A DNA stretch of 55,277 nt. It comes from Candidatus Coprosoma sp. (GTDB lineage Bacteria; Bacillota_I; Bacilli_A; RF39; UBA660). A program made the position numbers and the translations under genes. Position 1 is the first letter of the stretch. The number at the start of each line of letters is the position of its first letter. Where the stretch lies: positions 1-55,277 of the forward strand of contig CAWVFK010000014.1 in NCBI GenBank assembly GCA_963928595.1, read 5' to 3'. Of the stretch, positions 596 through 19,665 are shown in pieces. The notes below the pieces were generated by a model. That model saw only the letters and a program-made list of their open reading frames with translations. It did not search any database and was not told the DNA's origin.

Positions 596-636
596 AATTC
601 CCCTCCTTTAGAAAAAAGCCATATAATGGCCTTCTT

Positions 637-840
637 TTAATATCCGCGATTTTCACGGCGGTTACGACGACGAGTGTTTTTAATGCCTTCTTTTTTAGCG
701 TTTCTTCTTCTAACTCCTGGTTTTAAGTAACCGTCTTGTTTTTCTCTTAATTGTGCTAGGGAGCCATCTTTACTATTGGCAGCTTTTAGGTTTCTTAATG
801 CACCATCAACATTGCCATTTCTAACTACTACTTTTGTCAT
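637..840 (-). CDS. rpsU: 30S ribosomal protein S21
   Basis: MTKVVVRNGNVDGALRNLK...YLKPGVRRR fits the S21 pattern; start moved to the ATG at 840 behind the GGGAGGG RBS; adjacent to yqeY. Confidence 0.85.
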   Translation of the reverse strand: MTKVVVRNGNVDGALRNLKAANSKDGSLAQLREKQDGYLKPGVRRRNAKKEGIKNTRRRNRRENRGY

Positions 841-920
841 AAAAATCCCTCCCTTCTTGGCTAAGGATATTATAACACGGTAATTATTCGTTTTCAAGGA
901 AAAATGTAAAAATATAATAG

Positions 921-942
921 AAAAAGTAAGCTTTCGCTTACT
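921..942 (-). terminator. Intrinsic terminator after the double-glycine peptide genes
   Basis: AGTAAGC-gaaa-GCTTACT hairpin followed by a T run on the minus strand, overlapping the stop codon at 938. Confidence 0.7.
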
Positions 943-1102
943 CTAGACTGCAAGTGGCACCGGATGTTATCCTTCTAAATGATGATCCAAGGCTTTTTCC
1001 AAGTTCGATTATAAGACTTAAACCTTTGACTATTGCATTGATGAAAGTAGCCGTAATTGAACCTCCATTAATCATTTTTAAATCTTGATCTTTAATAATC
1101 AT
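938..1102 (-). CDS. Double-glycine leader peptide precursor 2 (54 aa, not in the ORF track)
   Basis: Manual translation MIIKDQDLKMINGG-SITATFINAIVKGLSLIIELGKSLGSSFRRITSGATCSLE; GG-type leader; ATGA overlap with the upstream peptide; downstream of a C39 exporter. Confidence 0.8.
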   Translation of the reverse strand: MIIKDQDLKMINGGSITATFINAIVKGLSLIIELGKSLGSSFRRITSGATCSLE

Positions 1103-1233
1103 TTACCACACTCTATTGGATTTAAAAATCCTTCTATAGCACTTATGATAAAGGTTATTACACCACCTAAGGCAGCCCAAAGGCCATAACCTCCGCCACT
1201 CACTTGCATTAGTTCCCTATTACTTAAATTCAT
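1099..1233 (-). CDS. Double-glycine leader peptide precursor 1 (44 aa, class II bacteriocin/pheromone-like, not in the ORF track)
   Basis: Manual translation MNLSNRELMQVSGG-GYGLWAALGGVITFIISAIEGFLNPIECGK; RBS AAAGGGG; LSxxELxxVxGG leader consensus. Confidence 0.85.
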   Translation of the reverse strand: MNLSNRELMQVSGGGYGLWAALGGVITFIISAIEGFLNPIECGK

Positions 1234-1244
1234 AAATCCCCTTT

Positions 1245-3251
1245 CTAGTTATTACGCGTAGTATCAACAACCACTTTTCCTTTTTGTAATTTGATATACT
1301 TGTCAAATAAATCCAAATTATCTAATCTATGTGAAATGTAAATTATAGTTTTATATTTGTAAGTTTTCATCAGTTTTTTTAAAATCCTCCTTTCCATATC
1401 TACACTTACTTGATTTAATCCTTCATCAATAATGATAATGTCAAAATTATTTAAAGCGCGAGCTAAGACAATACGCTGTTTTTGACCACCAGATAAATTA
1501 AATCCATCTTCTTCAATTATCTGATAATAATTTCCTTTTACAAATTTATCTATTTCACATATTTTAGTGTTTTTAGGATTTTTCTTTTTTAAGTTTAAAT
1601 TATCTTCTAAGGTTCCCGTAAATAGTATTTCTTTTTGAGAAACATATAAAATATTATTAAAATTATATTTTTTTATTTCTTTCTCTCCTATTTTCACACT
1701 ACCTTGATAATCTTGATAGTAACCTTTGATAATTTTAAATAATGTGGATTTACCACTACCACTATCACCTGTTACCATAACTTTACTTGATTTAGATATT
1801 TTTAAATTAAGTTTTTTTAAAACATGATTATCTTGGTTAAATATATAATTTAAGTTAGTAATAACAATATCACCATTTGCTTTAATAGGTTTTATGTTTT
1901 CTGATTTTTTGGTAGTTAATTCGGTTATATTGCTTAAAGCTGTTTTAACCTCATTTATTTGATAGCTAAAGTTAAAAAGATTTTTAAATGAAGATATAAG
2001 TAATGAAGATAAAATAAACAAAGTGACAAAAAGCGTTATATCACTATTACTTTTTTTTATGATAAATATGACAATTAGAAATGTACTTAAAGTTTCTAAC
2101 ATGTTCTTTAATAAATTATGATTTCCCTCATTTGTAGATAATTTCTTTTGACTGTTTATAAAATTTTGATATTTGTGATTAAATGTATTATATATTTTAG
2201 GAGTAATATTTAAATTTTTAATAGTTTCAAAGCCCACGATACTTTCTACAATGTATGAACTATTTAAAGCTTTTGTTCTAATCATTTCTGAGATCCATAC
2301 TTTTTGTTTTTTTTGGTAAATCGAAGTAATTAGTGAGAAAAGTAAAACACTGATAAAAGATATTATTAAGACAGAAGGATCAATACAAAAAATGATTATA
2401 CTTATAATTAAAATTAATGGGATTTCGAGAAAAACTATTTGAATAAACTCATTTATAGCATTTCTAATTATCGAAAGATCATTAAAGTAACTTGTGATTT
2501 CTCCAGTGGTTTTACGGCGGTAATAACGATAAGGAAGGTTTAAAATATTTTTAAAAATATCCATGGATAATTCTTGATCGAGCTTTATATTAAAATTTAA
2601 AAGCAACTTGTCTTTAAAGAAAGATAAAAGGTTTTTGGTAACAAAAATTAAAGAAAAAATTAGAAGCAGGTTTGTGACATTTTTTTTACTATTAATAATA
2701 GCTGGTATAAAAAGTGAAGTTAAAAGTGAAAAGATACTAACGATTATAGAAAAGACATAGATAATAATTACTAATTTTGAATGTTTTTTTATATAACGAA
2801 ACAGAAATTTTATAACTTGAGGCTCTGGTTCAGACACAATTTTGGAAATTGGCCTCATTTGAATAGTAACTCCACTCCATATTTGATAAAAATCTTTAAA
2901 GGACATTGTTTTTAAGTTTGTAGCAGGATCGGCAATGAATAAAGTTTTTCGTTTTGGATTTACCTTATAGATGACAATGTAATGTTTGTAGGAGCCATTA
3001 ACAGTTACATGTGCGATACAAGGTAATTTGAGATTCAAAACATCTTGTGATTTTATTCCGACACTTTTAAAACCTAAAGAATTCAATGTTTCTTTGATAT
3101 TATAAGCGGTTGTACCATTTTTATTGGTATTCATCATCTCACTTAGCTTGTCCATATTTACATACCCGTGATAGGACTTTAATATCATCTGCACACAGGC
3201 TGGACCACAATCTTTAATTCCACATTGCTTGACAAAAGGATATTTTCTAAT
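1245..3251 (-). CDS. Peptidase C39-containing ABC transporter (PCAT, ComA/SunT-like)
   Basis: The C39 motif VKQCGIKDCGPAC lies upstream of the GTG called by the ORF track; His in HYIVIY; TM domain; Walker A GDSGSGKST, LSGGQ, ISHRL. Start inferred at ATT 3251 (or ATA 3254) behind AGGGAGGTG. Confidence 0.9.
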   Translation of the reverse strand: MRKYPFVKQCGIKDCGPACVQMILKSYHGYVNMDKLSEMMNTNKNGTTAYNIKETLNSLGFKSVGIKSQDVLNLKLPCIAHVTVNGSYKHYIVIYKVNPKRKTLFIADPATNLKTMSFKDFYQIWSGVTIQMRPISKIVSEPEPQVIKFLFRYIKKHSKLVIIIYVFSIIVSIFSLLTSLFIPAIINSKKNVTNLLLIFSLIFVTKNLLSFFKDKLLLNFNIKLDQELSMDIFKNILNLPYRYYRRKTTGEITSYFNDLSIIRNAINEFIQIVFLEIPLILIISIIIFCIDPSVLIISFISVLLFSLITSIYQKKQKVWISEMIRTKALNSSYIVESIVGFETIKNLNITPKIYNTFNHKYQNFINSQKKLSTNEGNHNLLKNMLETLSTFLIVIFIIKKSNSDITLFVTLFILSSLLISSFKNLFNFSYQINEVKTALSNITELTTKKSENIKPIKANGDIVITNLNYIFNQDNHVLKKLNLKISKSSKVMVTGDSGSGKSTLFKIIKGYYQDYQGSVKIGEKEIKKYNFNNILYVSQKEILFTGTLEDNLNLKKKNPKNTKICEIDKFVKGNYYQIIEEDGFNLSGGQKQRIVLARALNNFDIIIIDEGLNQVSVDMERRILKKLMKTYKYKTIIYISHRLDNLDLFDKYIKLQKGKVVVDTTRNN

Positions 3252-3343
3252 TATTTCACCTCCCTTATATTTTATATACGACGTTTTGAAGGTGAAATCC
3301 TTTAAAAAAATAAAATTTATTAAAAAAATGGTATTTTTACCAT

Positions 3344-3871
3344 TTATAAATTGTTTTTATATATTTTAATTTTTTTAGGGCCATAACTTTTTTCTTTGAT
3401 TAATTCGAGGTTGGTGTGAGGCTCACCTATCTCATATTCACAGATGACAATTCCATTTTCATTTAATAGGTCTCTTTCTTCAATTATGCGCAAGGACTTG
3501 TCTAATTGGTTTTCTTTATAAGGGGGGTCTAAAAAAATAATATCAAATTTTTTATCAGTTGTTTTTAAGAATTTTTTATAATCAATATGAATGATATTTA
3601 AAGTTTCTTCAAAATTTTGGCTATTTTCTTTAATGGTTTTAATAGCTTCTATATTATTATCAATTAAATAACACTCTTTAGCTCCATTACTTACGGCTTC
3701 TAAACCTAAGGCTCCACTACCGGCAAATAAATCCAAAACTATACTACCATGAATATAAATTTGAATCATACCAAATAATGATTCTTTAACTCTATCCATA
3801 GTAGGTCTCGTACCTTCAATATTAAATCCATTTAATTTTTTTCCTTTATATTTTCCACTTATAATGCGCAT
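3344..3871 (-). CDS. rsmD: 16S rRNA (guanine966-N2) methyltransferase
   Basis: MRIISGKYKG, TRPTMDRVKESLF, LDLFAGSGALG and DIIFLDPPY motifs. Confidence 0.95.
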   Translation of the reverse strand: MRIISGKYKGKKLNGFNIEGTRPTMDRVKESLFGMIQIYIHGSIVLDLFAGSGALGLEAVSNGAKECYLIDNNIEAIKTIKENSQNFEETLNIIHIDYKKFLKTTDKKFDIIFLDPPYKENQLDKSLRIIEERDLLNENGIVICEYEIGEPHTNLELIKEKSYGPKKIKIYKNNL

Positions 3872-3899
3872 AATTAATCACCGTTTATATTTTAACACA

Positions 3900-4121
3900 T
3901 TATTTGAAACTGACCAATATTTTTTCGAGCATTTCAAAGGTATTAAAGACTCTTTCTAATCTATCAACTTTTGATAGATGATATTCTCTTTTAACTTCTT
4001 CTTCAAATCTTTTAAATTCCCAAGGTGTTCTATTTAAGGTTTTATACCACTGAGCGTGCTGACGAAGATATCTTAGATAGTTTTCATTTTCTTTTATTTT
4101 AAATTGTAAGTCTAAAGTCAT
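3900..4121 (-). CDS. ylbE: YlbE-like protein
   Basis: YLRQHAQWYKTLNRTP resembles the YlbE IREQPIWYRRLSR pattern; follows ylbD. Confidence 0.75.
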   Translation of the reverse strand: MTLDLQFKIKENENYLRYLRQHAQWYKTLNRTPWEFKRFEEEVKREYHLSKVDRLERVFNTFEMLEKILVSFK

Positions 4122-4480
4122 TAATCATCAAAGTGTTTATATATTGGCCTTGGCTTATAATTATTAGTTTGAGGTGTTTGTTTATTCGATGACATATCTT
4201 GAAGTAAACTTAAAACTCTTTGTAAGCTAGTAACACCATTTTGAATACCATCTAAATCTAAGCCTTTAATAAAATTAGTCAAGTCAAAGTTAGTAGTTTG
4301 CTTTACCGGAGTACTTTCTTTGACTAGATAATCTTTCCAAGCTTCTTTGTCTTCACCATAGATATCATATATTTCATAAAATTGTTGCCAGGTCATTTTT
4401 CCATCTTTAACATGTTTTAAAAGAATTGGATTACTTTTAACAAAGTCTTTAAATTTTTCTTTTGTTTCCATATGTATCAC
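4121..4480 (-). CDS. ylbD: Spore coat protein YlbD-like
   Basis: FKDFVKSNP...TWQQFYEIYDIYGED matches the YlbD N-terminal pattern; ylbD-ylbE-rsmD order. Confidence 0.75.
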   Translation of the reverse strand: MIHMETKEKFKDFVKSNPILLKHVKDGKMTWQQFYEIYDIYGEDKEAWKDYLVKESTPVKQTTNFDLTNFIKGLDLDGIQNGVTSLQRVLSLLQDMSSNKQTPQTNNYKPRPIYKHFDD

Positions 4481-4537
4481 CTATATTAATATATTCATTA
4501 TATAGGAAAAAAACACACAATTTATAAAAAAACTTAA

Positions 4538-5041
4538 TTATGAATTTTGGACATAATTAAGTTTTACAGTTAAAGTTCCAGATAATTCTGTAGGTTGAGT
4601 TGTAACATTACTATTATATGCAATAGTGACATCATACTTTTGGCTTTCACCAGCTTTTAATAAATCGTTTTCGTTTATACCAGAGGTTGAAAAAACAATT
4701 GCAGGATTTTGGGATTCAGTCATGTTGATGCTTTCAACTTTGGCGTCGACTGTTCCTTCATTGGTGACTGTCACAGTATACGTCATACTGTCACCAGGAC
4801 TAGTTAAGTTTGTTTTAAACGTTGCAGAAGTGTCAGAAACTACTGGTTCAAAAGCTTTAGTGGCTTCGCCAATAATATTTTTAGTGGTAACATCTGTAAT
4901 TTTAATATCCCAATTACTATCGATATTTGCTGTGCCATTTATATTTAAAGTTGTCGAAAATGCAGCATAAGTTATAGCCATAATACAAACAATAGCTATT
5001 AAAAATGTTATAATAATATTATTTTTTTTCATCATACTCAC
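4538..5041 (-). CDS. SipW-type signal peptide, TasA/CalY-like secreted beta protein (dispersed paralog)
   Basis: Signal peptide ending TYAAF; LNINGTANI; SPGDSMTYTVTVTNEGT; C-terminal YVQ; clearly paralogous to the 17-19.6 kb array and to 45192..45704. Confidence 0.75.
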   Translation of the reverse strand: MSMMKKNNIIITFLIAIVCIMAITYAAFSTTLNINGTANIDSNWDIKITDVTTKNIIGEATKAFEPVVSDTSATFKTNLTSPGDSMTYTVTVTNEGTVDAKVESINMTESQNPAIVFSTSGINENDLLKAGESQKYDVTIAYNSNVTTQPTELSGTLTVKLNYVQNS

Positions 5042-5076
5042 CTATTTTAATTATAACACAATATAGAAAAAAAGTC

Positions 5077-5724
5077 CTATTCACTAGCACTTTTTTCACT
5101 CATTGACGCAACTTCAATTTTATTACCGTTATGAATTAGAGTTAAACTACCCTCAGTTTGATAGCCTAAATCTTCTTTATATTCTACTTCAAAATTATAT
5201 ATATAAGCATTATCATCGGTATTTTCGCCATAAGTATAGCTGTCATTTTTAACTTTAGTTACAGTAACTTTAGTAACTTCTGGTAAGGTTTGTTCACGAT
5301 CTCCATAAACGTCACTTTCAACTGTTTTATATACAGCGTCCATCGCATATTTTTCAAAGTCATTTTGATAATTAGCATAAACAAATTGTACTCCACCAAC
5401 ATCATTTTTACTGATTTTATTATCTAAACTAAAGAAATCAGCGATAAACATTTGGGCGACTAATTCAGAATATTTTTCTTCATCAACATCGTCAGTATTT
5501 AAAACTTTTTCTAATTCCTTAAATAGTTTTTTATAATATGCGGTGGCATTATCTCTTAGGGTATATCCATAGGCATCGATAGATGCGACTTCTTTAACTG
5601 CTTTAGTATCAACATCTTTGGCAGTTAGTTTACAGACGCCTAAAATGATACCCGAAATAATTAATACAAGTAGGATAATTAGAATAGCTACTCTTTTGAC
5701 GTTTATTTTACGTTTCTTTTTCAT
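5077..5724 (-). CDS. Membrane-anchored extracellular protein of unknown function
   Basis: Basic N-terminus, one TM helix, acidic ectodomain; ATGA overlap with the LTA synthase stop. Confidence 0.7.
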   Translation of the reverse strand: MKKKRKINVKRVAILIILLVLIISGIILGVCKLTAKDVDTKAVKEVASIDAYGYTLRDNATAYYKKLFKELEKVLNTDDVDEEKYSELVAQMFIADFFSLDNKISKNDVGGVQFVYANYQNDFEKYAMDAVYKTVESDVYGDREQTLPEVTKVTVTKVKNDSYTYGENTDDNAYIYNFEVEYKEDLGYQTEGSLTLIHNGNKIEVASMSEKSASE

Positions 5725-7769
5725 CTTTGCCCTCCTTTTATTACTTTATCTGACTCTTCAGTTTTCTTAATTAAGTCATGAACTATGATGTCATTAGAAA
5801 CCGCAATTTCTTTTTCAGCTATATCAGTATATTTAGATATGTAGTTTTTGTCAATAACAGAATCTTCGTCAAAGACAATTGCTTTGCCATTTTGACTATC
5901 ATAATACATTTTATCGGTAATCCAGTTTCCATTAGGGAAAATAACGTAGTGGTCATCAGTACTAAAGACATCGTGACCTAAAGCATATTTATCATAAATA
6001 CCAAGCATATTACCTAAGGTTGGAAGAACGTCGTACATGCCAGTTACTGTAGTAACTTCTGTATTGATTTTCTTCCTTAATTCTTTATCTTTAGTCCAGA
6101 TAATAAGTGGTACTTTACGATTAAGCTCATAATCATATTTAGTAAATTCTTTATAATTTGGATCACTACTTGAAAGTTTAGAGTCAGTTTCAGGGTTGTA
6201 GTTATAGTAGTAATCATATTCTGATCTTTTGATTTTAGCATCGTGGTCACCATAGATGACTAAGACAGTATTATCTAGTAATCCTTCTTTATCAAGCTCA
6301 TCGACAAGTTCACCAATGGCCTCATCAGCATAATGTGCGGTTGTAAAGTAATGTCCTAAAGTTGTGTTTGATAAATAATCATTGACAACTTCGGTTTGTT
6401 CACCAGTAACTTCGTCAGTTTTAGTGTAATGATATGTTAAATCTAAATCAGTTTGATCTTCTAATCCTTCAAATGGGGTATGATTTGTAAGCATGATCAA
6501 AGTTCCATAATATTTATCATGTTTTTTAGCAATATTTTTTATTTTTTGAACCGATTGTCTAAAGAAAGATTTATCTGAAAGGCCTAAGCCAATAACTTCA
6601 TCGATATCATAATCTTTATCATAGTAATAGAATTTATCGTATCCTAATTGTTTATGCATGACTTCCCTATTCCACATGTTTCCTTTGTTAGCATGCATAC
6701 TAAAGACATAATAATCTTCATTTTTTAAGAATTTTTGAATTGATGGATATTCTCTATCCCAGTAACTGACAAATACGGTACCACTACTTGCTGGAAGTAG
6801 AGATGTACTATAAGTAAATTCGGTATCACTACTTGTTCCAACACTTTCTTGAGCATAAAAGTTAGAAAAATACATACCTTCATCAGCTAATTTCTTTAAA
6901 TTAGGGGCAATAGCTTTTCCATTAATTTCAGTATCTAACAGATAATTTTGCATGCTTTCGGCATGAATAACAATGACATTTTTATCTTTAAATATATCCG
7001 TATATTTGTTGGTAGCATCTTCATGGGTATTTTCTGCATAATAATCTCGAAAGTATTTAGCAGCGGTATCATATCCAAATAAAGGACTAATTTGTGGTTT
7101 TAAGCTAGCAATTAAGTCATTTCCTTGATAGACATAAATACCGAACTTCATAACAACATATTCTCTATTCCATTGTTTATATAATCTACTAATATCCGTT
7201 CCAGTTAAAGTTGAAACGAAGAATCCTAAGACAATAGCAGCAGCTACTAAGACTTTTAAAACACTAACTCTAAGTTTGTCTTTAATTTTGATTTTTTCAT
7301 AATAACCATGTTTTAAAAGTTTACGATGAACAAATATTAAAGTTAATGGGGCCCAAATATAACAGAAATCTTTTAATTCCATAATAGTTTTTAAGGCACC
7401 AGTCACTCCTCCTAATTGAAGAGAAGTAGCTAAAAGTGAGAACGATGTAAATGAGACGTAGTTTGTATAATAAATAGAATTAATTAAACAAACTAAGGTC
7501 AAAACAATCGAACATGTCAGAAAATATTTAAATCTATTTTTAGGTTTGAAAAAATAAGCAAAAGCACCAACAAATAGAATAAAAGCTAAATCAGCCAATA
7601 TTGGAGATATGGCTGTATAATTTTTTACTGTTAAAAAACGAATCAAACATCCATTAATCAAGGAAGTTATGATAAATGTTGTAAATAAAACATTATTTTG
7701 GAAAAAATATATTACTTTGTCTTTAGACTTTTTTAGAATATTTAATAATCTATGACCAAATTTTTTCAT
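5721..7769 (-). CDS. ltaS: LTA synthase family protein (sulfatase-like)
   Basis: Five N-terminal TM segments; NVIVIHAESMQ, GTSSDTEF, LTNHTPF and YGDHD motifs; start at ATG 7769 behind GAGGTGG. Confidence 0.88.
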   Translation of the reverse strand: MKKFGHRLLNILKKSKDKVIYFFQNNVLFTTFIITSLINGCLIRFLTVKNYTAISPILADLAFILFVGAFAYFFKPKNRFKYFLTCSIVLTLVCLINSIYYTNYVSFTSFSLLATSLQLGGVTGALKTIMELKDFCYIWAPLTLIFVHRKLLKHGYYEKIKIKDKLRVSVLKVLVAAAIVLGFFVSTLTGTDISRLYKQWNREYVVMKFGIYVYQGNDLIASLKPQISPLFGYDTAAKYFRDYYAENTHEDATNKYTDIFKDKNVIVIHAESMQNYLLDTEINGKAIAPNLKKLADEGMYFSNFYAQESVGTSSDTEFTYSTSLLPASSGTVFVSYWDREYPSIQKFLKNEDYYVFSMHANKGNMWNREVMHKQLGYDKFYYYDKDYDIDEVIGLGLSDKSFFRQSVQKIKNIAKKHDKYYGTLIMLTNHTPFEGLEDQTDLDLTYHYTKTDEVTGEQTEVVNDYLSNTTLGHYFTTAHYADEAIGELVDELDKEGLLDNTVLVIYGDHDAKIKRSEYDYYYNYNPETDSKLSSSDPNYKEFTKYDYELNRKVPLIIWTKDKELRKKINTEVTTVTGMYDVLPTLGNMLGIYDKYALGHDVFSTDDHYVIFPNGNWITDKMYYDSQNGKAIVFDEDSVIDKNYISKYTDIAEKEIAVSNDIIVHDLIKKTEESDKVIKGGQR

Positions 7770-8851: not shown

Positions 8852-10885
8852 TTAATTTTTTACTTCTTCTTTATTATTACGCATATCTAAAGTGGCTTCA
8901 TTTATGGCATCGTCAATAGTTTTGATTTCATCGGTAATCATACTATAACCAATGGCAGCTCCAAAACCGTGTGACAATTCTTTAAACTCTTTATTTAATT
9001 TTCTAATATATGTAACAATTGATTTTTCATCATGTCCAATGATAAAGATTAAAAATTCATTACCATTTGTTCTTAAAATTTCACTATCTTTTAACTGATG
9101 ATTGATTAAAATACTAGCAGCTTCAACTATAATCTTATCACCTTCTGCATGACCAAAGTTATCATTGATATAAGCAATATTATTTAAATCAATAATTATT
9201 ACTGATTGTGGATAAGCTTCACTATTATCCCAAGCTTCCATATTATCGTTTAAATAATTACGGTTTTTAAGTGATGTTAGAGTATCAATGTAACGAAGCT
9301 TATCGGTTTTAGAAAGTTTACTATTGATGTCTTTTTTCTTACCTAAAACAATTTTAGTAATAATACCAGCGATAGCAAGTAACACAATGACTAGACAACT
9401 TAAAATCAATTGTAAGTTCTTACTATTATTATTTTCCAAAAGTAAATTTCTATAACTTTCGTGTGTCATTTCCTTAGTGTTTATAAATGAAAGATAAAAA
9501 TTAAAGAAATCATTTAAGTGTTTATCATCATGGTCGTCTTTAGAGATAAATCCATAATTGTTTTCAATATCTAAGGTATGAAGGTTTTTATAATCTTTTA
9601 AGTCTGATCTAACATAATAATCATATGTGTATTCATCGATGGCAGCAACATCAGACGCATTTATATTATTAATTAAATCTCTAATATTATCAAATTCTTT
9701 AGTTTTTATATCATTTGATTTCAAATATCTAGCTATTTTACTATTTTTTATAGTTAAAACAGTAGTATCTTTTAATGAAGATACATTATTAACAACTAAG
9801 TCAGTATCTTTATCAGTAATAACAGCTATTTTACTATCATAAACTGGAATAGTTTGATATATATTATTTAAACCGCTATTATTAAAATTATTTAAAACTA
9901 AATCTAAATTACCTTTTTTAAAATCATTAAGCATAGTTTCGACAGATGAATATTGTTTATAATCTACTTCAATTCCGGCAGTAGCAGCAAAACCACTAAT
10001 TATAGAATGATCAAAGCCTTGCAAACTAGCATTTATCGTAACATCATATGGGGCATTAGCAACAAATCCATAAGTGTATCTTTTGCTTCGAAAATCTGTT
10101 TGGCTTTTTTCAGAGATATCTTTATAATTAAAATAAGTACTAGCTAAATAAGTATTAAATGAATCCTTAAGATTTCTCTCTTTCCATCTATTAAAGTATT
10201 TAGTAAGAATGGTATTTAATCTATCATTATCTCCTAAGGTGATTACATAGTCTATTTTATATTCAGTGATATTATAAGCTATATGCATATCATCTGATGT
10301 CAAAATATTTTCTAAATAGTCAAGTTTTGGTAAAACAATGGCTATTACTTCATTATTGGTTAGGGCATTTAAAACTGCATCATTTGAGTCATATGGTTTA
10401 TAAGTAATATTAGATGAGCCAGTTAAATATTCCTCGATAGCTTTTTGATCATCCTTCGAAACACCGATGGATAGATCTTTTATTTCATTAACATCATTAT
10501 AATATTTATTTTCTTTAGTTATTAAAATGTAATTATCTTGATATAAAACTAAATCATCTGAATCTACTTTGTTTTGTCTAGCAAGAGAATATTCAGCTGT
10601 GGCATCTTCATTAATATCATATGATAATTTGTTAAATTCAAGATCGGTTTCAGTTTCTAAGTCATTTAGAAAGTCAAAAAGTAATCCATCACCATTATCA
10701 CTGACGATTGGTACATCATTTAAAGCTGCAAAGTCAATTACATTATTTTTATTGTCTTCAATCCACTTTTTTTCAACAACAGTTAAAGCTGTTTTTTGGT
10801 CTTCTTTAGTAAAAAAACGGACTACGCCGATAGACCCTAAAATTAATACAACTACTATGATAATTATTCCGATTTTTTTATTCAC
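8852..10885 (-). CDS. Membrane sensor with tandem solute-binding domains and a degenerate GGDEF domain (NGNEF)
   Basis: N-terminal TM, two PBP-like ectodomains, TM, DTLTSLKNR, DLNNIAYINDNFGHAEGD, RTNGNEF; likely GTG start at 10885. Confidence 0.85.
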   Translation of the reverse strand: MNKKIGIIIIVVVLILGSIGVVRFFTKEDQKTALTVVEKKWIEDNKNNVIDFAALNDVPIVSDNGDGLLFDFLNDLETETDLEFNKLSYDINEDATAEYSLARQNKVDSDDLVLYQDNYILITKENKYYNDVNEIKDLSIGVSKDDQKAIEEYLTGSSNITYKPYDSNDAVLNALTNNEVIAIVLPKLDYLENILTSDDMHIAYNITEYKIDYVITLGDNDRLNTILTKYFNRWKERNLKDSFNTYLASTYFNYKDISEKSQTDFRSKRYTYGFVANAPYDVTINASLQGFDHSIISGFAATAGIEVDYKQYSSVETMLNDFKKGNLDLVLNNFNNSGLNNIYQTIPVYDSKIAVITDKDTDLVVNNVSSLKDTTVLTIKNSKIARYLKSNDIKTKEFDNIRDLINNINASDVAAIDEYTYDYYVRSDLKDYKNLHTLDIENNYGFISKDDHDDKHLNDFFNFYLSFINTKEMTHESYRNLLLENNNSKNLQLILSCLVIVLLAIAGIITKIVLGKKKDINSKLSKTDKLRYIDTLTSLKNRNYLNDNMEAWDNSEAYPQSVIIIDLNNIAYINDNFGHAEGDKIIVEAASILINHQLKDSEILRTNGNEFLIFIIGHDEKSIVTYIRKLNKEFKELSHGFGAAIGYSMITDEIKTIDDAINEATLDMRNNKEEVKN

Positions 10886-11345
10886 TGCTTCCAACCTCGT
10901 TCCCGTATGTAAAATTATCTTCTGTCTTATGTTTGTATCCAGCGATTGGGTAATTGTCATTATCTTCTTCTGTGTCAATTAAGATTTGAATATCATAGTA
11001 TTCCTTATCATCGTCAGAAATCTTATCTAAAATGGTGTCACCTAGTTTTTTAGCATCATCAGCACTCATATCATTACTGACAGTGATGATGAAGTTTAAG
11101 ATACGTCCTTCATTATTATAAGTAACATCTTTTACTTTATCATTTCCTTTTAATGAACTTTCAATATCATTAACAGTATCTGATGATATTTTGTGTTTAT
11201 CAATACCATCAAGGCGATCACCATATTTGTTATTACTGAAGACAGGAATAATAAATAACCATATAATTATTAAGAAAAAAATAACTAAAAATGCAATTCC
11301 ACCAATCATACATTGTTTTTTATGGGTTTTAAAAAAGTCTTTCAT
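10878..11345 (-). CDS. Single-TM exported protein of unknown function
   Basis: N-terminal TM helix, acidic ectodomain, GAGGTG RBS; 8-nt overlap with the GGDEF gene. Confidence 0.7.
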   Translation of the reverse strand: MKDFFKTHKKQCMIGGIAFLVIFFLIIIWLFIIPVFSNNKYGDRLDGIDKHKISSDTVNDIESSLKGNDKVKDVTYNNEGRILNFIITVSNDMSADDAKKLGDTILDKISDDDKEYYDIQILIDTEEDNDNYPIAGYKHKTEDNFTYGNEVGSSE

Positions 11346-11385: not shown

Positions 11386-12426
11386 TCAAACTTCACTGAT
11401 GACATATGGGTTGGTTTCTGAACCAGTACCGCCAATTATTTTAACGTTTTCATCAACAGTTAAAACTGGACGAACGTTTAAAGTTTCTGTACTACTTACA
11501 GTACTAATTAAACCATTATTTATAACATAAACATTACCATTTAAACTATTCAATGTATACTCAGCGCCATTTGTTTCAGAAAAATCTGACAAGTAATTAC
11601 CAACTGTACATTCAGCTTCATTACCTGAGATACATTTTAAATTATTAGAGGCATTTAAATAATCCTCAGTAGTTAAAAGACCAACAGTAATGTTTTCACT
11701 ATTGATACATTCATCATCATTATATGCTAAACAGAACTTTGATGCTTTAAATTCCCCAACACTATTTAAACTGTTATAAAAAGTATTGTTTAAATAAGTT
11801 TTGACAGTAGAATCATTAAAATCAGTACTACCATCGTTATCCCAAGATATTTGGGCAGTTTGTTCATTACTAATGATTTTAATACTACCATCACTATTGT
11901 TACTTAAAATGCGCCATAATTTACCATCCAATTTTAGATAGTTGTCGGGATTATCTCCTTTATATATACCGCCATCTGCTACTAAGACATCTTTTTTTTT
12001 AGAATTATTAATGATAGTTGTCGATAAATTATTTACAGATACTTCATTTGACTTAGATGCGGTATCAATATATTTATAAGTAAATTGTTTGATACTACTA
12101 TCATATTTTATTTCGACATTGCCGGTTAAATTTTTACTACTATTACGAGGATCTTTGACTTCATCGTCAGATATATACCCTTCTTCTAGCAATGTATTAA
12201 CAGAAAGACGATAAACAGTCCCATTATCTGGAAGAGTACTCGCATTATCAATACTCCAGTTTTTAGCGGCAGATTCAATAACAGCAACTTGATCTTTATA
12301 AGCACTTTCCCTAGAGTTTCTGATTACTGAACCAATGGCTGGATAAACAATTAAAGCGATTAAAGCTAATATGGCAACAACAGCTATTAATTCAACTAAA
12401 GTAAAACCTCTTTTATTTCCTTTCAT
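11386..12426 (-). CDS. Type IV pilin-like protein with a large C-terminal extension
   Basis: Class III signal KRG|FTLVELIAVV; ComGC-like VNTLLEEGYI; extra domain of about 220 aa (NYLKLDGKLWRIL...VRPVL). Confidence 0.85.
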   Translation of the reverse strand: MKGNKRGFTLVELIAVVAILALIALIVYPAIGSVIRNSRESAYKDQVAVIESAAKNWSIDNASTLPDNGTVYRLSVNTLLEEGYISDDEVKDPRNSSKNLTGNVEIKYDSSIKQFTYKYIDTASKSNEVSVNNLSTTIINNSKKKDVLVADGGIYKGDNPDNYLKLDGKLWRILSNNSDGSIKIISNEQTAQISWDNDGSTDFNDSTVKTYLNNTFYNSLNSVGEFKASKFCLAYNDDECINSENITVGLLTTEDYLNASNNLKCISGNEAECTVGNYLSDFSETNGAEYTLNSLNGNVYVINNGLISTVSSTETLNVRPVLTVDENVKIIGGTGSETNPYVISEV

Positions 12427-14654: not shown

Positions 14655-15746
14655 CTAATCTTGTTTAACGAAATGATCGAAATCAGATTCTCTTAATGTG
14701 AATTTGTATGCTGTCGCATTATTTACGATGACAAATACACTTTCAACATTTTCTTTAACTTCGAAGTAAAGTATTGGTGAATGCAATTCTTCTTCAACAT
14801 CTACTAAGTCGTTAAAGTTCTTAACATTGATAACATCATATTTTTCTAAGTCTGGCATATTGTGAGTTTCAGCGATGATATCAGCATATTCTTTTAAGAT
14901 CTTGTTAAGAGCTAGAACATATTCAGATTTTCTAGTTACAGCAAGTAGACTCTTAGCTAAGATTTTGAATGCTACTAATGAGATAACTAATAATACAATA
15001 CCAAACATTAATAATGGAATATTGATTTCAGCTGTTTCTTCAGCTGATTTATAAATTGTATCTCCACCACTATTTACATAGTTAGGTTTAATATTCATGG
15101 TTTGTTGTAATAATGGAATTTCTAATACCATAGTGTTTGTAGCTTGCATTTTTTCATCACTTACACCAGCTAAGCCAGCAGTAATATTAATTTTAACGCT
15201 TAAATCAACTCTCGCATCCAATGATAAACCAAATTGATTACGGAAATCAGTCATAATATCATTATATTGATTGTAATTTAATCGAACATTTTTGCTGATA
15301 GTGAATGAATCACCAGTACCACTTTGACTAGCTTGGTTAGCTATAGGATATTCTTTTGACCAAACTTCAACATCTTCTCCATCTGTGTTTTGATATAGTC
15401 CTTTAGCTGTGGCAACTATTGAATAAGTATAACTATAATCAAGTTCTTTAGTACTTTGGAAATTATAAGATGCATCAACATCAATATAATCAATTAATGA
15501 AGTAATATACTGTTTATTCATTCCAAGATAAGGTGATGTAAAGAATTGATTATCTTTTAAGTATACTTTATAATTTAAATTTGAATTATAAGTATATGAA
15601 TATAATTTTTCTTGAGCAGCTTGTTCAGGATTCAAGCTTTTAACAATTGATACAATGGATACCACCGTAACGGCGATTACAGCGATTAATAAGAATACTC
15701 TAATCCACTGTTTTAAAATTATTTGATTTTCATTTTTTTGTTTCAT
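14655..15746 (-). CDS. DUF5305-like membrane protein (TM, ectodomain, TM, cytoplasmic domain)
   Basis: Two TM helices flank a beta-rich ectodomain (IDYIDVDASYNF, VWSKEYP); directly downstream of the S26B peptidase; family name assigned from memory. Confidence 0.6.
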   Translation of the reverse strand: MKQKNENQIILKQWIRVFLLIAVIAVTVVSIVSIVKSLNPEQAAQEKLYSYTYNSNLNYKVYLKDNQFFTSPYLGMNKQYITSLIDYIDVDASYNFQSTKELDYSYTYSIVATAKGLYQNTDGEDVEVWSKEYPIANQASQSGTGDSFTISKNVRLNYNQYNDIMTDFRNQFGLSLDARVDLSVKINITAGLAGVSDEKMQATNTMVLEIPLLQQTMNIKPNYVNSGGDTIYKSAEETAEINIPLLMFGIVLLVISLVAFKILAKSLLAVTRKSEYVLALNKILKEYADIIAETHNMPDLEKYDVINVKNFNDLVDVEEELHSPILYFEVKENVESVFVIVNNATAYKFTLRESDFDHFVKQD

Positions 15747-15762
15747 CTTTCTTCTCCCCTTC

Positions 15763-16911
15763 TTATGATATTGCACCACTTAGCCATACTGATGGATATC
15801 CAATCAATGGTATAACAAATGATACTTTTCCTTTTACATCTTCTAAAGCAACTTTATCAGCATCAACAGCATTGTTATGATCACCTTTGGTAATGAACTG
15901 TTTGTTGCCTTTACTGTCATTAGTAATTTCTACTATTCTATGAACAACATATTTTGTTCCACTAACGAATTGAATTATGTCTCCTTTTTTCAATTCATCT
16001 TTTTCTCTGGTGGTAAGTTTATTAACTACTACTGCATCACCTCGATTAAATGTTGGTGACATACTACCAGATAAAACAGCAATTGGTTGATATTTGAATA
16101 ATCCCATAACGAAGCCGGCAAGTAATGCGATAAATGCGAATACTGGGACATATACCACCGGGTTATAACTTCGCCTTTCTCTTTTAGATAGTCTTTCTGA
16201 TCTATTTACATGAACATAGTTCATATAGATATAAATTGCGAGTGGTAAGGTTACACCAACTATTGCAGTAGCAAACCAATCTAGATTTGGAATGATTGGT
16301 ACAATGAATGGCGGAACGGTGACAAACAATCTATAAATAATAGAAAATTTAGCTCCACCTATATATACTAGATAAGTAGCCAAAGCACTTTCTAATATAG
16401 CTGGTATTAAAGTAGTTGAAGAATAAATAAATATTTCTTTTAAATCTGTAAAATGACTACCAATATTAGAATAGTTTAAGTTTATTAACATAAATATTAT
16501 AGTCATTAAAATAAAGTTCATAGCTTTTTTCTTTTCGTTTTTGACTAAGGCTTCTCTAATAAATTCTTGGAAGAAAACAAGTCCAGCAAAAGACCATAAG
16601 TTTTTCAAAATACTAAGTAGATCTTTTGAGTAAGGTGTTTTTTCAAAACCAAAAATTAATCCGAGTAAGAGGTAAACGATTATATAAATGATAAGTGCTA
16701 TAATTAAACTTTGTGTTTTATCTTGTTCACCCTTGACCCTTAAACTAGAATCTCGACTTAGGAAAATAGCAATTCCACACATGAAAATCCATATAAACGG
16801 ATGAATAATTTCATTATAATAGTTGAGATTTAGTGGGACAATGACAAAGACATTTAATACTAAATATATAATTAATAAACTATATATTATTAGGTTCTTT
16901 TTCATAATCAT
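15763..16911 (-). CDS. sipW: SipW/ER-type signal peptidase I (S26B) fused to an N-terminal polytopic membrane domain
   Basis: VLSGSMSP (Ser), GDAVV, VVHRIV (His) and TKGDHNNAVD motifs in the C-terminal ~130 aa; about 7-8 TM helices N-terminal. Confidence 0.85.
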   Translation of the reverse strand: MIMKKNLIIYSLLIIYLVLNVFVIVPLNLNYYNEIIHPFIWIFMCGIAIFLSRDSSLRVKGEQDKTQSLIIALIIYIIVYLLLGLIFGFEKTPYSKDLLSILKNLWSFAGLVFFQEFIREALVKNEKKKAMNFILMTIIFMLINLNYSNIGSHFTDLKEIFIYSSTTLIPAILESALATYLVYIGGAKFSIIYRLFVTVPPFIVPIIPNLDWFATAIVGVTLPLAIYIYMNYVHVNRSERLSKRERRSYNPVVYVPVFAFIALLAGFVMGLFKYQPIAVLSGSMSPTFNRGDAVVVNKLTTREKDELKKGDIIQFVSGTKYVVHRIVEITNDSKGNKQFITKGDHNNAVDADKVALEDVKGKVSFVIPLIGYPSVWLSGAIS

Positions 16912-16921
16912 ACCCCTTTTT

Positions 16922-16978
16922 AATAGTTTTCCCTACTATTCTATAATGAATTATAGCATAACATTTTGAAGTTGACAA
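16922..16978 (-). promoter_or_regulatory. Sigma-A promoter and leader hairpin of the sipW-DUF5305 unit
   Basis: TTGTCA-17-TATAAT with extended TG; AATAGT-agggaaa-ACTATT hairpin before the RBS. Confidence 0.7.
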
Positions 16979-17052
16979 CTGTAATTTTGGAATTTTTTAA
17001 GGCATTTTTATTTATTGACATTTTTAGAAAAGAAAAAGCTCATTTTTTGAGC

Positions 17053-17610
17053 TTAAGCTTGAACATATGTCATTGTTACTGTTAAATCAGCTGTAACATT
17101 TTGAGCATTTCCTTGTCCCTCTGCTTTGTCAACGAATTCAGCAACAATTGTAATTGTAGCCCTACCATCATTCGCATTTAAAGTTCCAGTTCCTGGACTT
17201 GTAACAGTGTATTTAATGTTACCGTCCTCACTAGTAGCAACTAAACCTTGAATGTCCATGCCTGGAGTGTCGCTTGATAAAGTAATATTGCTTAATCTAG
17301 CGTCTAGGGTTCCAGCATTTACAATTGGGATTGTATATGTGATTTTGTCTCCTGGACTTGTAAAGTTGGCTGTAAAGGTTGCTTGTAATCCACCTTCTTC
17401 AACATTAACTGATCCAGTTGGAGTTGTTCCCATTGTAGATTCTGGATTATAGGCTGCGCCATCACTTTCCATATGAACATCCCAACTTGAAGTAATTTCA
17501 GCACTTCCGTTAATTGTTAGTTGTTGAGCAAATGCGGCATAACCTACAGCCATAACAAATACTACAGCTAATAGTGCACCAATTAGAGCATTTTTGTGTT
17601 TACTTTCCAC
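17053..17610 (-). CDS. TasA/CalY-like SipW substrate, array copy 4
   Basis: GTG start at 17610 (MESKHKN) behind AAAGGA; GYAAFAQQLTINGSAEI; SPGDKITYTIPIVNAGT; ends YVQA. Confidence 0.8.
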   Translation of the reverse strand: MESKHKNALIGALLAVVFVMAVGYAAFAQQLTINGSAEITSSWDVHMESDGAAYNPESTMGTTPTGSVNVEEGGLQATFTANFTSPGDKITYTIPIVNAGTLDARLSNITLSSDTPGMDIQGLVATSEDGNIKYTVTSPGTGTLNANDGRATITIVAEFVDKAEGQGNAQNVTADLTVTMTYVQA

Positions 17611-17629
17611 GTTTTCCATCCTTTCTTTT

Positions 17630-17683
17630 AAGTAGTCTTTGCTACCTTAAATATAATATACCATATTTTGATTTTCTCTTCAA
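17630..17683 (-). promoter_or_regulatory. Promoter and leader hairpin of array copy 4
   Basis: TTGAAG-17-TATATT with TG; AGGTAG-caaaga-CTACTT hairpin (one G-U pair). Confidence 0.65.
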
Positions 17684-17725
17684 GATTGAACATAAAAGAA
17701 AAGCCAAAAGGCTTTTCTATAAGTT

Positions 17726-18280
17726 TTATGCTTGTATAGCATCAACAGTAATGTTAACACTTGCTGACTGTGTTGTACCAACTGATGTAGCACTTGAAAT
17801 AAATTCAGCTTTTACAGTCATAGTAGCTTCTTCACTTGCATCGATAGTTGTTGGATTTGGTCTAGTTACTGTAAATTGAATGTTACCTTTTTTAGCAACT
17901 AAGGCAGTTCCATCCTCATCACCAGTCATAGTAACAACAGGCTCTTGTAATTCAGCATTAATAGTTCCATTATTTTGGATTGTTAGTGTAAATGTAACAG
18001 TATCTCCTGGTTGAACTAAATTAGCTGTTAATGTAGCATTATGTCCATCAGTATAGTTAATTGTTCCTGATGGGGAAGTTCCTCCCGCAAAACCAGCAAC
18101 TGAGTCAATAACCCCAGCACCTGTTGTTTTAGATTGATCGAATGCAATATCCCATCTTGATGTTATTTCAGCACTTCCGTTAATTGTTAGTTGTTGAGCA
18201 AATGCGGCATATCCTACGGCCATAACAAATACTACTGCTAATAAAGTGCCTATCAAGATATTTTTGTGTTTACTTTCCAT
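17726..18280 (-). CDS. TasA/CalY-like SipW substrate, array copy 3
   Basis: GYAAFAQQLTINGSAEI; QPGDTVTFTLTIQNNGT; GGAGG RBS. Confidence 0.8.
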   Translation of the reverse strand: MESKHKNILIGTLLAVVFVMAVGYAAFAQQLTINGSAEITSRWDIAFDQSKTTGAGVIDSVAGFAGGTSPSGTINYTDGHNATLTANLVQPGDTVTFTLTIQNNGTINAELQEPVVTMTGDEDGTALVAKKGNIQFTVTRPNPTTIDASEEATMTVKAEFISSATSVGTTQSASVNITVDAIQA

Positions 18281-18305
18281 GTCATACCTCCTTGTATAAT
18301 ATTTT

Positions 18306-18358
18306 AAGTAGTCTCTCTACTCTATAAAGATATTATCATATTTTTTTGTGTACTTCAA
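18306..18358 (-). promoter_or_regulatory. Promoter and leader hairpin of array copy 3
   Basis: TTGAAG-17-TAATAT; GAGTAG-agaga-CTACTT hairpin. Confidence 0.65.
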
Positions 18359-18404
18359 GAAGAAAAAAAGAAAAACTTTGAAGTTTCTCTTTTCTTGACG
18401 TAAA

Positions 18405-18974
18405 TTACGCAGCTTGTTCAGCTAATGTAGTAACTGTAATACTTGATGATGTTACAGTACCAACACTTTGAGCATTATTATCAAATTCAGCAGTTACAGT
18501 CATAGTAGCAGTTTCACCTTCGTTAATTGTAGTTGGAGATGGTGCAGTTACTGTAAAGATAATGTTACCTGTTTTTACAATTAAAGGATCTTCATTTTCG
18601 TCTGAACCTTCACCATTTAAACTAACAACTGGAGTGTTTAATCTGGCATTAATATTTCCATAGTTTTCAATAGTTAATGTAAATGTAACTTTATCACCTG
18701 GTTGAACTAAGTCTGCAGTGATAGTTGCATTTTGGTCATTGGTGTAGCTAACTTCTCCAGTTGGAGCTGTTGTGCCATTAGCCCCCATTTTGGGAGTGAC
18801 AACACCTGGTTCTCCAGTTGTTTTTGAAGTGTCAAAGCCTACATGCCAGTTTGAAGTGATTTCTGCACTACCATTGATTGTAAGCGTTTGAGCAAATGCG
18901 GCATAACCTACAGCCATAACAAATACTACTGCTAATAGTGCACCAATTAGAGCATTTTTGTGTTTTGCTTCCAT
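18405..18974 (-). CDS. TasA/CalY-like SipW substrate, array copy 2
   Basis: GYAAFAQTLTINGSAEI; QPGDKVTFTLTIENYGN; GGAGG RBS. Confidence 0.8.
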   Translation of the reverse strand: MEAKHKNALIGALLAVVFVMAVGYAAFAQTLTINGSAEITSNWHVGFDTSKTTGEPGVVTPKMGANGTTAPTGEVSYTNDQNATITADLVQPGDKVTFTLTIENYGNINARLNTPVVSLNGEGSDENEDPLIVKTGNIIFTVTAPSPTTINEGETATMTVTAEFDNNAQSVGTVTSSSITVTTLAEQAA

Positions 18975-18997
18975 CTTTTTCCCTCCTATTATATTCT

Positions 18998-19050
18998 AAG
19001 TAGTTACTCTACTCTATAATGATATTATCATATTTATAAAATCTTTTCAA
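18998..19050 (-). promoter_or_regulatory. Promoter and leader hairpin of array copy 2
   Basis: TTGAAA-17-TAATAT; GAGTAG-agtaa-CTACTT hairpin. Confidence 0.65.
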
Positions 19051-19106
19051 GAAAAAAATCTACAATATGCGATTAGAAAAACGTTAGAAGTATTTATTTC
19101 TAACGT

Positions 19107-19607
19107 TTATCCTTGAACATAAGTTAAATTCATAGTAACACTACTAGTTGTGCTTTCTGGCATCGTAGTATAAGAATTATTAAATGTTACAGTAATAGTA
19201 AAGGTTTGGGCTTCTCCAGCATCAATTACATCATTTTGGCTTATTCCGGAATAACTATATTGTATAGCATCGTTATTGGAATCAGTAAAAACAATTGAGT
19301 CTAATTTGGCATCTAGAGTTCCACCATTTTTAACTGTTACATCATAAGTAACACTACTACCAGGTGTAGTTAAGTTAGCATTAAATGTGGCACTTAAATG
19401 ATTATCGCCAACAGATGTACTGACATTTTCAGCACCTAATGTGGTATTGTTAACGGCGATATCTTCAATATGAACATCCCAAGTTGAACTAATTTCTGCA
19501 CTTCCATTAATTGTTAATTGTTGAGCGAAGGCGGCGTAACCTATAGCCATAATTAAAACTACTGCTAGTAAAACCATTATCACTGAAGATTTATGCATAT
19601 CTTCCAT
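19107..19607 (-). CDS. TasA/CalY-like SipW substrate, array copy 1
   Basis: GYAAFAQQLTINGSAEI; TPGSSVTYDVTVKNGGT; ends YVQG; own promoter TTGAAA-17-TATATT at 19632-19660. Confidence 0.8.
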   Translation of the reverse strand: MEDMHKSSVIMVLLAVVLIMAIGYAAFAQQLTINGSAEISSTWDVHIEDIAVNNTTLGAENVSTSVGDNHLSATFNANLTTPGSSVTYDVTVKNGGTLDAKLDSIVFTDSNNDAIQYSYSGISQNDVIDAGEAQTFTITVTFNNSYTTMPESTTSSVTMNLTYVQG

Positions 19608-19665
19608 ATTTCCATCTCCTATCTTGATATTAATATATCATAATTAGAAATTCTTTTCAACAAAT

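Follow-up and report, generated by a model that had tools for sequence, protein, structure and literature searches.

A candidate fibre biogenesis locus with tandem TasA-superfamily-like subunits, a fused signal peptidase, and a DUF5305 protein in uncultured gut Bacilli

The closest described relatives of the system reported here are the AbpX loci of archaea, Bacillota, and Chloroflexota, which encode a type I signal peptidase (SPase I) of ten membrane helices, a DUF5305 protein, AbpX-like minor subunits, and tip proteins (bioRxiv 10.64898/2026.01.04.697558), and the archaeal Tat-fimbriae (Tafi), whose pilins assemble by strand donation and whose peptidase TafD has been shown genetically to process TafA (PMC11821415, PMC12337348). 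The DUF5305 protein of Tafi, TafG, is always encoded beside the dedicated peptidase TafD and is sometimes fused to it (PMC11821415; PMC12337348), taf-like clusters occur in Thermococcales and Archaeoglobales (PMC11821415, PMC12337348), and DUF5305 has been proposed to be an accessory subunit of the signal peptidase (PMC11821415; bioRxiv 10.64898/2026.01.04.697558). Here we describe a six-gene locus in a 55,277-nucleotide stretch of DNA from Candidatus Coprosoma sp. (GenBank assembly GCA_963928595.1, contig CAWVFK010000014.1; the whole stretch is hereafter the window) that encodes four small secreted subunits, a signal peptidase with a large N-terminal membrane domain, and a DUF5305 protein. 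We put at roughly 70% the probability that this is a biogenesis locus for a TasA-superfamily surface or biofilm fibre of AbpX/Tafi design, carried by an uncultured, walled, small-genome gut bacterium of the Bacilli. The locus is real and unstudied; it belongs to a kind of system first published between 2022 and 2026 and is not a new type. Its genes, with lengths in amino acids (aa), are as follows.

19607-19107, minus strand: subunit 1, 166 aa, shorter and more divergent than its three paralogs
18974-18405, minus strand: subunit 2, 189 aa, a TasA-superfamily-like β-sandwich
18280-17726, minus strand: subunit 3, 184 aa, the protein modelled with AlphaFold2 (AF2)
17619-17053, minus strand: subunit 4, listed at 188 aa, with a probable true length of 185 aa from GTG 17610
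16911-15763, minus strand: S26B/SEC11/SipW-type signal peptidase I with a fused N-terminal 8-helix membrane domain, 382 aa
15779-14655, minus strand: DUF5305 (TafG-like) membrane protein, 374 aa (PF17231)

The list of open reading frames bears out the layout proposed in an earlier reading of this DNA from its letters alone (the sequence-only reading), namely six genes, all co-oriented on the minus strand at the positions given there, with neither a sortase gene nor an LPxTG motif within the locus; the three sortases of the genome lie elsewhere. The subunits carry no sorting signal and end in ...YVQA, and the bacterium is walled and has sortases, its genome encoding five penicillin-binding protein-type transpeptidases in addition to the three sortases. 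The start of subunit 4 is probably GTG 17610 because the listed ATG 17619 falls within the ribosome-binding site, and that of the peptidase is probably ATG 16905, giving 380 aa, because its relatives are 380 aa long. The listed coordinates give the DUF5305 and peptidase genes an overlap of 17 nt, and the G+C content of the window is low (26-32%). The description of the subunits as four β-rich proteins of 166-189 aa whose leaders end in GYA-AF also holds: they are paralogous and alignable over their full length, the AF2 model of subunit 3 is a β-sandwich, and their common leader has basic residues, then a hydrophobic stretch, and runs on into VGYAAFAQ(Q/T)LTINGSAEI(T/S)S.W (in subunit 1, MEDMHKSSVIMVLLAVVLIMAIGYA before and AFAQQLTINGSAEISSTW after the predicted cleavage point). 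The first 45 residues are 69-89% identical among the paralogs and the remainder 28-58%, with subunits 2 and 3 sharing 64% identity.

Like the AbpX loci, exemplified by AbpX of Pyrodictium abyssi (9SJ2/9RHP), the present locus combines a dedicated SPase I of about ten helices with a DUF5305 protein and several small acidic β-sandwich subunits. The mature subunits have an isoelectric point of about 4 (4.05-4.27, with 4.05 for subunit 1), as in AbpX, and an Asp plus Glu content of 10-14%, slightly under the value of about 15% reported for AbpX; their predicted mature N-terminus is A-F-A-Q or A-F-S-S, which places an aromatic residue, Phe, at position 2, again as in AbpX, and AbpX is the top match of the family profile in the PDB. 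This similarity is only marginal (E 0.02-0.03), so that the subunits probably form a separate clade; the locus also has no sortase, S-layer homology, or LPXTG partner, and one genome holds about 26 genes with the same leader. With the Tafi loci of Haloarcula hispanica and Natrinema (TafA-G), it has in common a dedicated peptidase (TafD), a DUF5305 protein (TafG), and several small subunits, the Tafi pilins being two or three in number and 150-200 aa long. In contrast to Tafi, the leaders are of the Sec type without a twin arginine (they start MESKHKN..., and the RR pair is absent from all four tandem subunits), the subunits match no DUF1102 or Tafi model, and the peptidase has an N-terminal 8-helix domain, whereas in TafD four membrane helices are combined with an Ig-like domain at the C-terminus. 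The component shared in the strict sense is thus DUF5305 (TafG) only, as neither twin-arginine leaders nor a TafD-type peptidase were found in the locus.

The sequence-only reading had taken the Bacillus operons as its comparator. Its proposal of a dedicated, peptidase-linked locus for TasA-superfamily subunits stands; however, AbpX/Tafi-type loci are closer to this locus than the Bacillus tapA-sipW-tasA operon. As in tapA-sipW-tasA of B. subtilis and calY/camelysin of B. cereus, an S26B SipW-type peptidase adjoins secreted subunits that carry the cleavage motif aromatic-Ala followed by Ala/Tyr-Phe, and the subunit core is remotely homologous (hhalign probability 87%). Unlike the peptidase here, SipW spans the membrane with two helices and lacks a DUF5305 partner; the peptidase scores 74.5 bits against the Bacillus SipW equivalog model NF046067, whose cut-off is 190, and the subunits stay below the threshold of Peptidase_M73. 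The locus has four subunit genes, and its relatives up to ten, which agrees with the claim of more paralogs than in the Bacillus operons, but operons with several TasA/BsaA paralogs have already been reported (PMC11580942). A TapA gene is absent from the locus, as had been noted, and the open reading frame list shows no third small accessory gene, TapA not having been searched with its own model; yet the genome encodes proteins, described below, that have the conserved strand without the sandwich and would be able to fill a TapA-like role. The sipW-bsaA-bsaB-bsaC operon of Clostridium perfringens likewise combines a dedicated peptidase with several TasA-like paralogs (PMC11580942), and the likeness extends to type IV pilin genes nearby (here at window positions 11386-12426) and to an N-terminal stretch that is disordered in the monomer model. 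It differs in that its Asn-Glu-Lys triad is not conserved here, its von Willebrand A protein is absent here, and the peptidase architecture is different. Unlike in sortase-assembled Gram-positive pili, there is no sortase in the locus and no LPXTG on the subunits.

Sequence comparison indicates that the homology of the subunits to TasA and AbpX is probably remote but real and that they form a clade of their own. The profile of the subunit family, aligned using hhalign with TasA/camelysin-like proteins that adjoin SipW in Siminovitchia, Massilimicrobiota, and [Eubacterium] hominis loci, matched these with a probability of 86.9% (E 4.2e-6, 107 columns) over a span running from the PGD motif through the C-terminal ...Y.QA, and the leader aligned with that of SipW-neighbour proteins, YAAF pairing with YAYF (E 2e-5). 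Two earlier suggestions, that the subunit core is related to TasA/camelysin-like proteins and that the leader has a SipW-type cleavage motif, are therefore supported. In a search of 177,635 PDB sequences, the family profiles ranked AbpX (9SJ2, 9RHP) at the top (E 0.024-0.031) and TasA (8AUR, 5OF1) next (E 0.1-0.5), and a single-sequence phmmer search of the PDB with one subunit returned nothing relevant. The family is large: the four-subunit profile collects 6,050 clusters (50% identity) at E<=1e-3 and 2,110 at E<=1e-10, and subunit 3 has more than 500 homologues, all unnamed, the close ones carrying neither a name nor a Pfam domain.

The sequence-only reading also asked whether relatives conserve the cluster, and they do. 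In a scan of species-representative genomes, the order subunit(s)-fused peptidase-DUF5305 was found in about 60 loci; with about 60 species-level genomes showing the same gene order, chance is a very unlikely source of the arrangement. In 60/60 related loci the S26B peptidase adjoins subunit genes and the next gene downstream of the fused peptidase is that of DUF5305; gene order is kept at peptidase identities of 28-38% (loci L066 and L069-L071). Between 1 and 10 leader-bearing genes, each of about 160-260 aa, precede the peptidase, and a first subunit gene of 166 aa recurs in the loci of many relatives. This range of copy number across species suggests rapid birth and death of paralogs. The longest array, ten tandem subunit genes before the peptidase, was seen at positions 575-7395 of locus L064, from an uncultured Bacilli metagenome-assembled genome (Lapin-012 bin34). 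In close relatives argS lies upstream and a U32 peptidase gene downstream on the opposite strand. The closest named record is Firmicutes bacterium CAG:822 (94%), and the other relatives are uncultured gut, rumen, and faecal metagenome-assembled genomes of 1.3-1.5 Mb labelled "Bacilli", "Tenericutes", or "Firmicutes". Among 121 sampled genomes of the order, 45 encode the full-length fused peptidase, some in two or three copies; leader-bearing genes (E<1e-7) occur in 45/45 genomes with the fused peptidase versus 2/76 without it (Fisher p = 3e-31), which ties the leader to this enzyme.

The peptidase is an S26B (Ser/His) signal peptidase, as predicted from the sequence alone: it matches the archaeal/endoplasmic reticulum (ER)-type SPase I model TIGR02228 (E 5e-28), its catalytic residues are assigned to Ser283, His324, and Asp344, and the Ser of SGSMSP, the His of VHRI, and the KGDHNN motif are invariant in 23 homologues at identities down to 28%. 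The AF2 model (predicted local distance difference test, pLDDT, 83.2) has helices at residues 2-27, 32-51, 62-87, 98-125, 130-144, 157-185, 187-203, 212-238, and 251-273, which comprise eight membrane helices, separated by a positively charged loop from an anchor helix (251-273) that is followed by the catalytic β domain and a short C-terminal helix (372-381); a hydropathy scan agrees with about ten membrane helices. The best Foldseek matches, which cover the catalytic domain, are human SEC11C (E 2.7e-5) and SEC11A (E 7.4e-5) of the signal peptidase complex, and weaker matches are SipA of Streptococcus (S. pyogenes, E 2e-3) and SpsB. The only other S26 enzyme of the genome is a housekeeping peptidase of the LepB type, so the fused peptidase is an extra, specialised enzyme.

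The N-terminal 8-helix domain has no PDB relative by Foldseek and no credible Pfam family (four homologues searched, E up to 10), and a homologue search restricted to this region returned close fused relatives only. It is present in 11/400 genomes of a phylum-wide sample, almost only in the bacterium's own family, and contains the conserved extracellular mini-strands GFEKTPY and VPIIPxLDW. Two candidate identities were considered and rejected, a CPBP/Abi protease, suggested by the invariant E..R in FQEFIRE, because the spacing is unlike EExxxR and the His motifs are missing, and an exosortase or archaeosortase, because there is no conserved Cys or His.

The match to S. pyogenes SipA, an SPase homologue without catalytic activity on which pilus polymerisation depends, raises the possibility that the N-terminus of the subunits stays uncleaved as a signal anchor, giving a membrane-tethered coat, with the peptidase-like protein and DUF5305 acting in another role, for instance as a SipA-like chaperone; the reported membrane anchoring of BsaA oligomers (PMC11580942) points the same way. 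We regard this as improbable given that all 23 aligned homologues retain the catalytic Ser, His, and Asp, unlike SipA, and that the leaders have an invariant Ala at position -1 and a small residue at position -3, which fits the SPase I cleavage rule.

The DUF5305 protein matches PF17231 with 73.2 bits (cut-off 29; E 2.6e-20). Two transmembrane segments (28-46 and 256-274) flank an ectodomain of about 210 aa, in agreement with the topology proposed by the sequence-only reading, which had not included the C-terminal cytoplasmic tail of about 100 aa. The same reading had assigned the protein a role as anchor. We do not follow this assignment, as the architecture of the locus is that of AbpX loci, in which DUF5305 is labelled a signal peptidase accessory protein, and the literature treats TafG-type proteins as partners of dedicated signal peptidases; by analogy with these systems, it is more likely that the protein is an accessory subunit of the peptidase than a fibre anchor. 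In a distant relative (L069:9155-10705), the DUF5305 protein has a Lys/Glu-rich N-terminal cytoplasmic extension of about 170 aa that is absent here.

The N-terminal region of the mature subunits suggests how a fibre might be assembled. In the AF2 model of subunit 3 (mean pLDDT 82.6), residues 3-26 form the signal peptide helix, residues 26-37 have a pLDDT below 50, and the rest is a confident β-sandwich with a pLDDT of about 90. Mature residues 1-12 are therefore unstructured in the monomer model (pLDDT <50), yet they are the most conserved stretch of the family: conservation reaches about 20 residues beyond the cleavage site, with L31, I33, and W43 invariant. Gene conversion of 5' cassettes was considered as an explanation and rejected, as conserved residues use the same codon only somewhat more often within the first 45 codons (0.58-0.80) than further on (0.41-0.64), and protein-level selection explains most of the conservation. 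BsaA has a comparable N-terminal loop, disordered when modelled as a monomer, that multimer models place inside the following subunit (PMC11580942). We hypothesize that the four subunits are exported by Sec and that the ER-type peptidase of the locus, with its DUF5305 partner, cuts the leader after the invariant Ala of ...G-Y-A in front of A-F..., as homology and co-occurrence suggest. Cleavage would release the conserved amphipathic N-terminal strand AFxxQLxIxG(S/T)(A/S)xI, which would enter the β-sandwich of a neighbour by donor-strand complementation to give a non-covalent fibre. Polymerisation is posited here by analogy with TasA, AbpX, BsaA, and Tafi. The tandem paralogs, with conserved ends, divergent surfaces, and a promoter-like element each, may be alternative subunits or major and minor ones.

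A covalent variant of this scheme, in which an isopeptide bond would link the donor-strand Asn (N in TINGSAE) to a Lys of the acceptor subunit, is suggested by the presence of this Asn in all four tandem subunits and by the Asn35-Lys74-Glu56 isopeptide triad of BsaA (PMC11580942). The four mature subunits share no invariant Lys, subunit 1 having only two Lys, so a BsaA-type lock is unlikely, and in most of the other leader-bearing paralogs of the genome Ser, Thr, or Lys replaces the Asn; we consider such a bond very improbable and retain the non-covalent fibre as our working model.

Several observations weigh against a TasA/AbpX-like fibre. The links of the subunits to AbpX and TasA in the PDB sequence search are marginal (E 0.02-0.5), and the profile matches rest largely on PGDxVTYxxTVxNxG, a motif common to DUF11, CARDB, and DUF7507 domains. 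No curated TasA, camelysin, or SipW-signal model of Pfam or NCBIfam has its threshold reached by the four subunits: for PF12389 (Peptidase_M73, TasA/camelysin) the best of the four reaches 16.4 bits versus a cut-off of 22.5 (E 0.008-0.016, with equally weak matches to DUF11, CARDB, and DUF7507), and the SipW-cognate signal peptide models (NCBIfam TIGR04088 and relatives) give no match at E<0.1. Across the family, PF12389 matches 24/84 members at E<0.1, below threshold, with a best E of 6.9e-5. A Foldseek search of the PDB with the AF2 model of subunit 3 returned generic β-sandwiches only (such as GAE and appendage domains; best E 7e-3, TM-scores up to 0.44), with AbpX and TasA outside the top 50; the query was the full-length model, in which the signal-peptide helix depresses TM-scores, and the structure search neither confirms nor excludes a TasA/AbpX fold. 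AbpX binds Ca2+ through an acidic residue at mature position 4; in the subunits here this position is Q, S, T, or Y and never D/E. The assignment of subunit cleavage to the fused peptidase, and not to LepB, derives solely from linkage and co-occurrence. Finally, promoter-like sites are not enriched over shuffled sequence (31 found versus 30 expected); the shared promoter and leader design described below takes its support from the alignment of upstream regions only.

The system extends beyond the six genes to which it had first been assigned, as about 26 genes of the genome carry the leader. The N-terminal module of the subunits occurs in 22 places in the genome, and a hidden Markov model (HMM) of the leader finds about 27 open frames; the count in our survey, 26 in a genome of 1.13 Mb, is the highest of the 121 genomes. 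These genes lie on contigs C3, C8, C10, C13, C17, C21, C23, C24, C25, C28, C32, C33, C34, C36, and C42, and two stand-alone members of the subunit family are found elsewhere in the window.

45192-45704, minus strand: stand-alone subunit-family gene, 170 aa, leader HMM E 8e-33, 40% identity to subunit 3 over residues 8-136
4538-5041, minus strand: stand-alone subunit-family gene, 167 aa, leader HMM E 1e-22, matched by the subunit module search

The leader-bearing cargo proteins span 73-956 aa and include a 956-aa protein with DUF285 leucine-rich repeats (LRRs) and Flg_new and a 518-aa protein with BspA-type LRR_5. Several leader-bearing TasA-like proteins (on C8, C3, C42, C23, C25, and C32) end in an unnamed domain of about 250 aa (...NYLKLDGKLWRIL...GGTGSETNPYVI; weakly DUF6273-like). 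It also forms the C-terminal part of the type IV prepilin-like protein with an N_methyl motif at 11386-12426 (minus strand) of the window, so that one cargo domain is found on two filament scaffolds. In a second class of leader-bearing proteins, the leader and a short strand, GYAAFxTNLxIxAKGNI, are followed directly by cargo and the acceptor sandwich is absent. To judge from their sequences, these strand-only proteins, one of them a 301-aa protein on contig C10, would be able to supply a strand to a partner but not to receive one, which is the behaviour to be expected of a cap, a tip, or a TapA-like nucleator. The roughly 20 leader-plus-strand proteins beyond the locus, some with an acceptor and LRR/BspA adhesin domains and others with strand and cargo, would then probably be minor, tip, or cap components that join the same fibre, or TapA-like nucleators.

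The breadth of this cargo can also be read without a fibre. The leader could be a specialised export or sorting signal, and the peptidase-DUF5305 pair could mature about 26 surface proteins and adhesins that remain monomeric or are released. The attachment of the leader to many unrelated proteins suits this explanation, the co-occurrence of leader and peptidase suits it as well as it suits a fibre system, and the generic β-sandwich returned by Foldseek is consistent with it; nevertheless, a signal peptide alone does not need conservation about 20 residues past the cleavage site, the small subunits consist of the sandwich only and so have no evident monomeric function, the homologous TasA, AbpX, Tafi, and BsaA proteins all polymerise, and filament subunits are typically encoded in tandem arrays such as the 1-10 subunit genes seen here. 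We therefore judge pure sorting unlikely and continue to favour a fibre. As a tentative extension, which is possible but which we would not press, the leader and strand may be a genome-wide plug-in tag by which about 26 proteins, matured by one peptidase-DUF5305 complex, are displayed on, cap, or nucleate a common four-subunit fibre, and the 8-helix domain could be a platform that couples cleavage to strand exchange. The corresponding task of membrane assembly platform or chaperone falls to TapA in Bacillus, and Gram-negative pili use a distinct chaperone or usher for it.

Gut Bacilli with such reduced genomes have not been cultured, and their attachment to surfaces, hosts, and partner cells is little understood. 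With roughly 2% of the genes in one leader family, TasA/AbpX-style fibres and the adhesins displayed on them are suggested as the main surface-adhesion system of this bacterium. The interest that remains, given the earlier descriptions of related systems, lies in how large and how anonymous the subunit family is, in the orphan N-domain of the peptidase, and in the genome-wide strand tag on adhesins; profiles for the subunits, which have no Pfam or NCBIfam name, and for the N-domain would improve the annotation of gut metagenomes. How the peptidase and DUF5305 cooperate in fibre assembly is a question left open by the archaeal papers, and the compactness of the locus, six genes without a sortase, makes it a convenient test bed.

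Further observations concern other leader-bearing genes of the genome. A leader-bearing pseudogene with stop codons lies at C13:22320-22568, and several leader-bearing genes are located at contig ends, which suggests that their near-identical 5' cassettes probably break the assembly. One of the sortase genes (C13:2323-3354) lies within a segment of the same contig, C13:1466-4030, that has two flanking genes, one encoding a 305-aa protein ending in NPKTSDG, a hydrophobic stretch, and KKKLA, and the other (C13:3383-4030) a divergent leader-bearing protein with a long N-terminal extension. This segment could be a sortase-linked branch of the leader family.

The upstream regions of subunits 2-4 (18975-19106, 18281-18404, and 17620-17725) share TTGAA(A/G), a spacer of 17 nt, and TATGATAAT, together with a conserved hairpin, AGTAGAG.ACTACT, just before AGGAGG; this shared element may be regulatory. 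Upstream of every subunit gene stand a similar TTGAA(A/G)-17-TG-extended -10 element and a conserved leader in which a small hairpin precedes the ribosome-binding site; for subunit 2 these are its own TTGAAA-17-TAATAT element and conserved 5' leader, and the peptidase gene has a promoter-like TTGTCA-17-TGnTATAAT at 16978-16950. Terminator-like elements, each a hairpin with a T-run, follow subunit 3 (17718-17697) and subunit 4 (17054-17036). At 8852-10978 (minus strand) of the window, 3.7 kb from the locus and near the pilin-like gene, a 708-aa membrane protein combines a solute-binding-like ectodomain with a GGDEF domain (E 2.7e-19); cyclic di-GMP enzymes have been reported as neighbours of AbpX-like loci (bioRxiv 10.64898/2026.01.04.697558). 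Farther away, at 1245-3194 (minus strand), the window encodes an ABC transporter with an N-terminal C39 peptidase domain, of the type that exports bacteriocins or double-glycine peptides.

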